Shown: positions 39,512-42,902 of the stretch, in pieces
Position numbering within the stretch: the stretch's first letter is position 1
Layout: each line of letters starts with the position of its first letter
NCBI GenBank assembly: GCA_039794845.1
Contig: JAUQVK010000112.1
Span: 14,359-78,358 of the forward strand
Reading direction: 5' to 3'
From: Thermostichus sp. DRC_bins_24
Lineage (GTDB): Bacteria; Cyanobacteriota; Cyanobacteriia; Thermostichales; Thermostichaceae
Length of the DNA: 64,000 nt
Notes under the pieces: generated by a model
Seen by the model: only the letters and a program-made list of their open reading frames with translations
The model's database searches: none
Told to the model about the DNA's origin: nothing
Made by a program: the position numbers and the translations under genes

Positions 39512-42313
39512 GTGGACTACAAAAGCACCCTTAACCTGCCCCAAACTCAGTTTTCCATGCGGGCAGAGGCCGCCAAGAAAGAACCCGCCATTCAAGCCTT
39601 TTGGCAGGAAGAGCAGATTTATCAACGCCTTTCGGAAAACAACAGCGGGGATCCCTTTGTGCTGCACGATGGGCCGCCCTACGCCAATGGCGACATTCAC
39701 ATGGGCACCACCCTCAACAAGATCCTCAAGGATATTGTCAACAAGTATCAGATCCTGCGAGGACGCAAGGTGCGCTACGTGCCCGGCTGGGACTGTCATG
39801 GCCTGCCGATCGAGCTGAAGGTGCTGCAAAGCCTGCCCGCCCAAGAGCGGGAAAGTCTCACCCCCCTGCAACTGCGGCAAAAGGCCAAAGCCTATGCCCT
39901 GGGCTACATCGATACCCAGCGCACCAGCTTCAAACGCTTGGGGGTATGGGGATCCTGGGATCGGCCGTACATGACCCTGAAACCCGAATACGAAGCCGCC
40001 CAGATCGAGGTGTTTGGGCAGATGGCCCTGAAGGGGTATATCTACCGTGGCCTCAAGCCGGTGCATTGGAGCCCCAGCTCCCAGACGGCCTTGGCCGAAG
40101 CAGAGTTGGAATATCCCGAGAATCACATCTCCCGCAGCATCTATGTGGCCTTTCCCCTGAAAAGCCTCAGCCCCTCAGCCCAAGCGGTTTTGGATCCCTT
40201 TCTGCCGGGTTTGCGGGTGGCCATTTGGACCACGACCCCCTGGACGATCCCGGCCAACTTGGCCCTCTGTTTTAGCCCCAAGCTCACCTATGCCGTGGTG
40301 GAATCCCCAACCTTTGGGCATCTCCTAATCGCGGCGGATCTACGGGGGCGGCTGGAAAAAGTCTTAGAAACCTCCCTTGAGGTAAAGGCGACCCTACCGG
40401 GCTCCGCCCTGGAATACTCCCAAGGGCAGCACCCCCTCTACGACCGCACCAGCCTCTGTGTCTTGGGAGAATACGTCACCACCGAATCGGGGACCGGCAT
40501 TGTCCATACCGCCCCAGGACATGGGGAAGACGACTTCAAAACCGGCCAAAAATATGGCCTGCCCATCCTCAGCCCGGTGGATGATCAGGGAAAATTTACG
40601 GCTGAGGCGGGGGCCGATTTTGTCGGGTTGGATGTGCTCTCCAAAAAGCCGGAAACCAGTGGCAATGCCGCCGTGATCAAGGCTCTGCAGGCAGCCGGTG
40701 CCCTCCTCAAAGAAGAACCCTACAACCACAAATATCCCTACGACTGGCGCACCAAGGAGCCGACGATTTTTCGGGCCACCGAGCAGTGGTTTGCCTCCGT
40801 TGCCGGATTCCGGGATCTGGCCCTGAAGGCGATCAAAGACGTGAAATGGATCCCGGCGATTGGCGAAAATCGCATCACCGCGATGGTGGCAGAACGTTCC
40901 GATTGGTGCATTTCCCGGCAACGGGCCTGGGGTGTGCCCATCCCCGTATTTTACGACGAAGAAACCGGGGATCCCTTGCTCACGGCCGAAACCATTGACC
41001 ACATCAAAACCATTTTTGCCCAAGAGGGATCCGATGCTTGGTGGACTCACTCGGTGGAAGACCTGCTGCCGGAAACCTACCGTCACAATGGCCGTACCTA
41101 CCGCAAGGGCATGGACACAATGGATGTCTGGTTTGACTCCGGTTCTTCTTGGGCAGCGGTGGCCAAAGCACAGGGACTGGGCTATCCCGTGGATATGTAT
41201 TTGGAGGGATCCGATCAACACCGGGGTTGGTTCCAATCCAGTTTGCTCACGTCCGTGGCGGTGAATGGTCATGCCCCCTACAAATCGGTGTTGACCCACG
41301 GATTTGTGCTGGATGAAAAAGGCCAGAAAATGAGCAAATCCCTGGGCAATGTGATTGACCCGATGCTGTTGATCAACGGCGGAAAAAATCTGCAAACGGA
41401 TCCCGCCTATGGGGCCGATGTGCTGCGGCTATGGGTTTCTAGTGTGGATTATTCCGGTGATGTGCCGCTGGGCAAAACCATTCTTGGCCAAATGGCGGAT
41501 GTGTACCGCAAGATCCGCAATACTGCTCGGTTTTTATTGAGCAACCTCTATGATTTTGACCCGGCCCAGGATGCTCTGTCTTTTGCTGAACTGACGGAGT
41601 TGGATCGCTACATTCTCCACCGCCTGAAAGCGGTGGGATCCGAAATCACCGAGTCTTTTGAGAGTTACCAGTTCTACCGCTTTTTCCAAGCAATTCAGAA
41701 TTTTTGCGTGGTGGATCTCTCCAATTTTTATTTGGATATCAGCAAGGACCGTCTGTATATTAGCCATGCCCAAAGTCCACGGCGGCGACAATGTCAAACG
41801 GTGCTGGCCATCCTGCTGGAAAATCTGGCCAAGGCAATTGCCCCCGTTCTGTCCCACATGGCCGAGGAAATTTGGATGCATCTTCCCTACCCCAAGCCCA
41901 CCCCATCGGTGTTCGAAGCGGGCTGGATGAGCTTGCCCGAGACTTGGTCGGATCCCCAGTTGTCTGCCACCTGGGAGCAGTTGCGTTCTGTACGGCAAGA
42001 GGTGAACAAAGCCCTCGAGCAAGCCCGCACCGAAAAGCTGATCGGGGCGTCCACCGAAGCCAAGGTCATCCTTAAGGTGGGGGATCCCGGTCTTTACCGG
42101 ATCCTGGAAGATCATGCTGCGGAGTTGCGTTACCTATTGATTACCTCACAGGTAGAAGTGGCCAAATCGACAGAGGGGTTGGAGATCATTGTTCAGCCTG
42201 CCGAGGGTAAAAAATGCGTGCGCTGCTGGAACCATTCCATTCATGTGGGCGAATCCGCCGAGCATCCAGAATTGTGTGAGCGCTGTGTGGCGGCTTTAGC
42301 AGGAACCTTTTGA
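39512..42313 (+). CDS. ileS: Isoleucine--tRNA ligase
   Basis: HDGPPYANGDIHMGT, GWDCHGLP, WTTTPWT, EGSDQHRGWF, KMSKS, C-terminal Zn finger. Confidence 0.99.
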   Translation: MDYKSTLNLPQTQFSMRAEAAKKEPAIQAFWQEEQIYQRLSENNSGDPFVLHDGPPYANGDIHMGTTLNKILKDIVNKYQILRGRKVRYVPGWDCHGLPIELKVLQSLPAQERESLTPLQLRQKAKAYALGYIDTQRTSFKRLGVWGSWDRPYMTLKPEYEAAQIEVFGQMALKGYIYRGLKPVHWSPSSQTALAEAELEYPENHISRSIYVAFPLKSLSPSAQAVLDPFLPGLRVAIWTTTPWTIPANLALCFSPKLTYAVVESPTFGHLLIAADLRGRLEKVLETSLEVKATLPGSALEYSQGQHPLYDRTSLCVLGEYVTTESGTGIVHTAPGHGEDDFKTGQKYGLPILSPVDDQGKFTAEAGADFVGLDVLSKKPETSGNAAVIKALQAAGALLKEEPYNHKYPYDWRTKEPTIFRATEQWFASVAGFRDLALKAIKDVKWIPAIGENRITAMVAERSDWCISRQRAWGVPIPVFYDEETGDPLLTAETIDHIKTIFAQEGSDAWWTHSVEDLLPETYRHNGRTYRKGMDTMDVWFDSGSSWAAVAKAQGLGYPVDMYLEGSDQHRGWFQSSLLTSVAVNGHAPYKSVLTHGFVLDEKGQKMSKSLGNVIDPMLLINGGKNLQTDPAYGADVLRLWVSSVDYSGDVPLGKTILGQMADVYRKIRNTARFLLSNLYDFDPAQDALSFAELTELDRYILHRLKAVGSEITESFESYQFYRFFQAIQNFCVVDLSNFYLDISKDRLYISHAQSPRRRQCQTVLAILLENLAKAIAPVLSHMAEEIWMHLPYPKPTPSVFEAGWMSLPETWSDPQLSATWEQLRSVRQEVNKALEQARTEKLIGASTEAKVILKVGDPGLYRILEDHAAELRYLLITSQVEVAKSTEGLEIIVQPAEGKKCVRCWNHSIHVGESAEHPELCERCVAALAGTF

Positions 42314-42570: not shown

Positions 42571-42795
42571 CTATTGCCCCTGCTGCTCTATGGCACGGCG
42601 CAATTCACTGGCCATGTCCATAAACTCTCGCGGATTACCCGCAGTGCCATAGGAGGAGCGATCTTGAACCTTCTTGCCGCTGCCTTGGCGGGTACGGCTG
42701 TTGAACAAGGAACTGGCCATGTCCAGGAACTTAGCGGGATTTCCCTCGCTGCTGGCCCGCGTTGAGGAGCCCCGTCCGGCACGAGTGATAGCCAT
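42571..42795 (-). CDS. Small basic protein with two GNPxxFxxMA repeats (candidate phycobilisome core-binding linker)
   Basis: GNPAKFLDMASSL and GNPREFMDMASEL in 74 aa; the amino-acid-level repeat supports coding. Confidence 0.65.
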   Translation of the reverse strand: MAITRAGRGSSTRASSEGNPAKFLDMASSLFNSRTRQGSGKKVQDRSSYGTAGNPREFMDMASELRRAIEQQGQ

Positions 42796-42902
42796 AACTG
42801 TCGCGATTCTCAGAAATGAAATGCTTGTTCACATCATCCCACAAGGGATCGGCGATCAACCAGGGCAAATGCTGCATCTTGTTAAGCCGCCCCAAGGTGA
42901 GG

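Follow-up and report, generated by a model that had tools for sequence, protein, structure and literature searches.

The family Thermostichaceae branches early and counts the most heat-tolerant cyanobacteria among its members. In the genome of a member of this family, Thermostichus sp. DRC_bins_24, a small gene encodes a protein of 74 residues carrying two copies of a motif which, judged by its sequence, is the CpcG form, G[DN]PxxFxxMA, of the FxxMA 'HIWA' helix that docks on allophycocyanin. The 74-aa protein probably binds allophycocyanin, and it may be a small soluble phycobilisome-core binder, a structural staple specific to this family, a reading which we place just short of an even chance. 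The gene itself is real: it is conserved, has a low dN/dS, and is kept across changing neighbourhoods. It is already annotated in databases as a 'hypothetical protein'.

The gene was analysed within a window of 64,000 nucleotides, which is the whole stretch of DNA considered here. The protein consists of a variable basic N-terminus, motif 1, a spacer, motif 2 and a short tail, placed in the window as follows:

42571..42795, minus strand: the 74-aa ORF (P0001), ATG start, TAG stop, stop included
42706..42744, minus strand: motif 1, GNPAKFLDMASSL (GNPxxFxxMAxxL), residues 18-30; AlphaFold helix 20-36
42640..42705, minus strand: spacer, residues 31-52, of constant length in the alignment of 30 rows
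42673-42687, minus strand: QGxGK, residues 37-41, invariant in 30/30 rows
42601..42639, minus strand: motif 2, GNPREFMDMASEL (GNPxxFxxMAxxL), residues 53-65; AlphaFold helix 55-73; aligns with CpcG 211-229 of PDB 7SC7

Both FxxM motifs described in the earlier note, and the basic Ser/Gly/Arg-rich stretch between them, are present in the translated ORF, and the repeat goes beyond chance (internal repeat score 56, maximum in shuffles 42; 0/3000 shuffles reach 56). The two halves are alike over ~13 residues around the motif and not in the spacer. A tandem repeat of the whole 35 residues was rejected, as the half-to-half similarity is that of the motif part alone. Of the 51,231 six-frame ORFs in the genome, 2 contain G[NDS]PxxFxxMA, and the 74-aa ORF alone has it twice.

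The motif residues are the best-conserved positions of the 30-row alignment. Motif 2 has F in 29/30 rows, M in 29/30 and A in 30/30, and motif 1 has F in 25/29, M in 26/30 and A in 30/30, so that both follow the FxxMA pattern; in some members motif 1 decays, with Y replacing F (4/29) or a residue other than M (4/30). Residues A27, L30, Q37, G38, G40, K41, G53, P55 and A62 are invariant, and the spacer also has R34 in 27/30 rows and D/E45 in 30/30, while the N-terminus varies in both length and sequence. The aromatic-to-aromatic distance is 35 residues in 29/30 intervals, the sole exception being a distance of 37 in P0019. This 104-aa protein, from a single short contig, has three motif copies with spacings of 37 and 35. 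Since the spacer is constant in length and has invariant residues, it is probably a contact element, beyond being a flexible tether.

The 74-residue protein has a net charge of +5 (+3 to +8 across the two-motif members), a pI of 10.8, and neither a hydrophobic nor a membrane segment. The AlphaFold model is poor (pLDDT 62, pTM 0.25); it has the two helices listed above (local pLDDT about 70-80), no fold linking them and no predicted strands, and Foldseek returned zero matches with it.

The earlier note had named lack of conservation as refuting its reading, and the ORF is in fact conserved: among 41 genomes searched, the source genome and 22/22 others of the family (8 genera) each have a single intact copy, while 7 sister-family genomes and 11 from further families have none. 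Selection is purifying, with a median dN/dS of 0.127 (0.034-0.299; 65/66 pairs usable) among 12 same-genus sequences, in which the variable columns per codon position number 20/21/58. The codon-usage score of the ORF is middling (0.108, long genes 0.30 +/- 0.10), and 9% of 16,181 short ORFs outscore it.

In wider searches too, no member came to light outside the family. The family profile matches 2/301 genomes of the phylum, both from the family of the source genome. When five sister-family genomes were searched with a limit of E 1, its three matches, all weak, comprised two in CpcG tails and a third running across a stop; in 2/5 of these genomes a CpcG tail was the best match. Among 1.84 billion representatives there were 12 matches, namely 8 members (51-104 aa) and 4 long proteins (P0025-P0028), the latter rejected after inspection as unrelated repeat proteins. 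A further search turned up 28 proteins 51-74 aa long; those with a name were 'hypothetical' or 'uncharacterized', apart from one fragment bearing a sulfotransferase label. No longer fused form scored among 8000 candidates, which is weak evidence, and the ESM Atlas search gave no usable match. Named records come from Thermostichus, Thermostichales and related 'Synechococcus' genomes. In a tree that omitted the 51-aa fragment P0024, rows mostly cluster by genus and the deep forks are left open.

The gene sits between ileS (plus strand, ending at 42313) and, upstream of it, minus-strand genes for an ABC permease and adenylylsulfate kinase. The neighbours vary and have no link to light harvesting. 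Among 12 same-genus loci, cysC is a neighbour at 10, the permease at 6 and ileS at the window's locus only; in several other genera an FAD oxidoreductase and/or ndhH lies beside the gene, with ndhH 3' of it in 5 loci. About 25 conserved bases lie between the gene and ndhH (L016, L018, L019, L021, L022), possibly the promoter or leader of ndhH. Two elements precede the start codon:

42808..42816, minus strand: 9-base conserved word, exact in 12/21 loci, in the presumed 5' untranslated region
42833..42841, minus strand: extended -10-like element, ~40 bases before the start; its loose pattern fits 18/21 loci, a count with no control set

Judging from these elements, the gene seems to be driven by a separate promoter; a consensus scan for promoters and terminators found nothing, the -10-like element included.

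The source genome carries a full phycobilisome gene set. It encodes a CpcG that bears the motif itself, an ApcE containing three linker repeats, apcAB and a Carot_N-domain protein. As the apc/cpc clusters are on contigs other than that of the 74-aa gene, the earlier note was right to call the gene standalone and away from these operons; its remark that the gene is easy to miss does not hold, since databases already carry it. The CpcG of this genome (L024:1282-2115, P0042) lacks the FPQxIWQxxVR seen before the motif in nine aligned CpcG tails. Elsewhere in the genome, a short PF00427 protein lies beside two divergent phycobiliprotein-like ORFs and a ferredoxin-like ORF (G000:C6:13512-18000; L029, L040), and an extra allophycocyanin-like pair is followed by what we take to be an isiA/isiX-like gene, seemingly split over two overlapping frames (G000:C72:5983-8583; L038, L039). 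A link of the 74-aa gene to the low-light apcD/apcB/isiX-like cluster was not supported, as that cluster is on a different contig.

The FxxMA helix of LcpA, ApcG, Lpp2/LPP2 and CpcG, the 'HIWA' motif, contacts allophycocyanin according to the accessible part of PMC11789067, which bears out the earlier note in attributing an FxxM motif to CpcG and ApcG-type linkers. Excerpts of the ApcG and ApcI preprints put the motif Phe in ApcA (ApcI: bioRxiv 10.1101/2024.09.09.612062), and the available text of PMC12216592 has the groove helices of linkers in alpha-subunit grooves. The docking helix is not treated in the accessible part of PMC8448738. The longer form G[DN]PxxFxxMA, given as GDPxxFLxMA in the earlier note and ascribed there to both groups, holds for CpcG tails and not for ApcG, which shares FxxMA alone (RRxPG[PA][SN]xxxFxxMA).

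Several comparisons point to CpcG. The single PDB match of the family profile is to Synechocystis CpcG 211-229 (weak, E 1.3), and NCBIfam CpcG4 matches the 74-aa protein with its positions 206-228 (weak, E 0.12). A match to NCBIfam GrpE outscored CpcG4 (E 0.0017) and was rejected, since its 18 bits fall far below the cut-off of 192. Profile-profile comparison gave probabilities of 90% for CpcG tails, 85% for an acidic family described below and 76% for ApcG tails, the last over 17 columns only. When a matrix built from nine CpcG tails of other cyanobacteria was run over 272,671 genome windows, the CpcG of this genome came out on top, with motif 1 in second place and motif 2 in tenth. The profile-profile and matrix tests are partly circular, as their CpcG rows were gathered by a pattern from the 74-aa protein; the PDB and CpcG4 matches are free of that circularity. 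At the DNA level G[ND]PxxFxxMA occurs in 64/151 cyanobacterial genomes (12 of the same family) against 5 control matches, and the 30 loci inspected comprised 14 CpcG tails (one confirmed by NCBIfam, nine as alignment against PDB CpcG chains), 7 of the unnamed acidic family and 9 chance frames. Every similarity to known linkers is 10-19 residues long and individually weak. There was no Pfam match for the 74-aa protein (scattered weak ones among members), and a single-sequence search of the PDB gave 2 irrelevant matches alone.

CpcG/LRC1 shares G[DN]PxxFxxMA in its tail with the 74-aa protein, where the motif is doubled, at a fixed spacing and outside the cpc cluster; CpcG itself is ~250 aa long, with a PF00427 rod-binding domain that the 74-aa protein lacks. 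The likeness to ApcG (Sll1873)/LPP2 is a general one, these proteins being small, basic, largely unfolded, Pfam-less and encoded outside the apc operon, with an FxxMA helix, whereas ApcG has one motif, after RRxPG, and a long N-terminal part. The RRxPG of its C-terminal domain and its conserved N-terminal and charged middle regions are missing from the 74-aa protein, to which a full-length ApcG profile aligns in no more than 16 columns (probability 42%); the apcG candidate of this genome (C61) reaches 97.9%. ApcG-type proteins were collected by a tail motif that we take to be theirs (45/81 genomes, 0 control matches). The resulting ApcG-tail profile recovers the PDB chains Sll1873, LPP2 and ApcG, also matches CpcN and CpcJ, and at E 0.05 lists two genes in the source genome, the apcG candidate C61 and an ApcI/LcpA-like gene, C77, but not the 74-aa ORF. 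Two strong matches of the ApcG type come from a single genome (G039:C12, C13, C45), and a published apcG primer had no match in the genome collection.

ApcI (Sll1911)/LcpA (A0913) are likewise small stand-alone proteins with an FxxMA helix, but have about 120-130 aa, an N-terminal region, a conserved beta-strand middle region and one C-terminal motif; by this description of ApcI, the 74-aa protein, with two helices and no predicted strands, is built differently. The source genome has an ApcI/LcpA-like gene (C77), named by fit to the published description rather than to a reference sequence, with relatives in 41/61 cyanobacterial genomes, near the 64% reported for ApcI in the accessible part of bioRxiv 10.1101/2024.09.09.612062. 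The 74-aa protein was thus rejected as the family's ApcG or ApcI. As apcG, ApcI-like and cpcG genes are all present separately, it is an additional protein and not a divergent orthologue.

The Gloeobacter protein LRC91kDa (Glr2806) offers a precedent of another kind, one chain reaching several alpha-allophycocyanin grooves via short helices; in section 7 of PMC12216592, from its available text, it wraps the core with four groove helices. LRC91kDa, Anthocerotibacter CpcJ, CpcN and ApcH are however large, with tandem PF00427 (REP) repeats (PMC10696076 and PMC12216592, in their accessible parts). These domains are missing from the 74-aa protein, in which the helices are free-standing.

In the proposed mechanism, each GNPxxFxxMA helix would insert its Phe/Met/Ala/Leu face into a groove of alpha-allophycocyanin, as the CpcG tail does, and the constant-length spacer would follow the surface from one such groove to another. 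The protein would thereby staple two neighbouring allophycocyanin trimers or cylinders, in one core or in cores in a row, using grooves unoccupied by CpcG, ApcG or ApcI. Some 20 spacer residues extend to roughly 70 Å at most, and on the familiar dimensions of trimer and groove they should span the way to a groove on an adjacent trimer or cylinder more readily than that to the next one on their own trimer. This mechanism is supported by the motif kinship, the fixed spacing, the three-motif homologue, the full phycobilisome and the LRC91kDa precedent. Against it stand the short and weak similarities, the decay of motif 1, the GrpE match that outscores CpcG4, the unrelated neighbours and the poor model. 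Furthermore, the gene is family-restricted, yet the core, with its ordinary-looking ApcE, gives no reason why one family alone should need a clamp. For binding, occupation of two sites at once and a structural role taken together, we would put the chance somewhat under even. Tentatively, and as clearly short of even, we also advance a new class of component: a multivalent stand-alone staple, with two docking helices (three in one homologue) set a measured distance apart, which would cross-link cylinders of allophycocyanin or join adjacent phycobilisomes into rows.

A regulatory role would use the same grooves differently. As a mimic of the CpcG tail, inducible and of high avidity, the protein could fill the rod-docking grooves (or those of ApcG/ApcI); in high light or stress conditions this would detach rods or uncouple the antenna. 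The CpcG-form motif occurs here without a rod-binding domain, the gene appears to carry a promoter of its own and changes neighbours from locus to locus, and in red light ApcI takes the place of ApcG at one site (accessible part of bioRxiv 10.1101/2024.09.09.612062). A competitor has no obvious need of an invariant spacer, however, and we consider this role unlikely.

It also seems improbable that this is a real small protein with a different partner, resembling the CpcG tail through convergence of a capped amphipathic helix. The shortness and weakness of all similarities and the distance from antenna genes would fit, and with 9/30 pattern loci being chance frames the pattern can arise by chance; on the other hand, two full G-N-P-x-x-F-x-x-M-A copies are conserved at exactly these positions in a phycobilisome-bearing organism, and the motifs rank high, if partly circularly, in the CpcG-tail matrix.

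The net charge and the conserved spacer could instead suit a third core-to-membrane tether, in which the helix or helices grip the basal cylinders and the basic N-terminus and QGxGK spacer touch photosystem II, some other complex of the thylakoid or the head groups of lipids; this needs one helix bound only. ApcG and ApcI/LcpA share such a design (PMC11789067 and bioRxiv 10.1101/2024.09.09.612062, accessible parts), and there are the 5 loci with ndhH. The N-terminal parts of ApcG and ApcI are however missing, the N-terminus is variable and both known tethers are already encoded in the genome, which leaves this reading quite unlikely. That the frame is no gene at all and arose by chance between ileS and the ABC permease, as its middling codon usage might suggest, is hardly credible, because the ORF is conserved, intact in 23/23 family genomes (own included) at a dN/dS of 0.13 and in varied neighbourhoods.

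The unnamed acidic cyanobacterial family (97-125 aa; alignment A2), with one G[DN]PxxFxxMA near the C-terminus, is a second candidate groove-binding protein by its motif. Its loci are:

L071:1479-1769, L072:1261-1551, L074:1249-1557, L075:1246-1611
L076:1413-1784, L077:1416-1784, L082:1252-1626

No family match came from NCBIfam (4 sequences scanned), from Pfam (1 sequence scanned) or from the PDB. Matches were found in 7/61 genomes, none of them in the family of the source genome; 3 are full-length and 2 probably the motif alone. This second, single-motif family suggests that there are more such groove binders.

New phycobilisome linkers keep being described, with ApcG in 2022, ApcH in 2023 and ApcI/LcpA in 2024-25, and each small linker so far has turned out to adjust how energy flows to the photosystems. 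In the literature covered, from which subscription papers were largely absent, no two-motif mini-protein was found, nor does one appear in the accessible parts of a 2026 review (PMC13436157) and a survey of thermophile linkers (PMC10053587). The small linkers described in the literature covered have one docking helix each, so a protein made of two such helices only would be a new design. Its reach is limited, as the gene is confined to one family. Within that family, if our reading is correct, the 74-aa protein would either clamp cores or rows or compete naturally with the attachment of rods; it could also provide a short peptide tool for antenna engineering. If it does act as a staple, it would give a handle on the forces that hold antenna cores and rows together.
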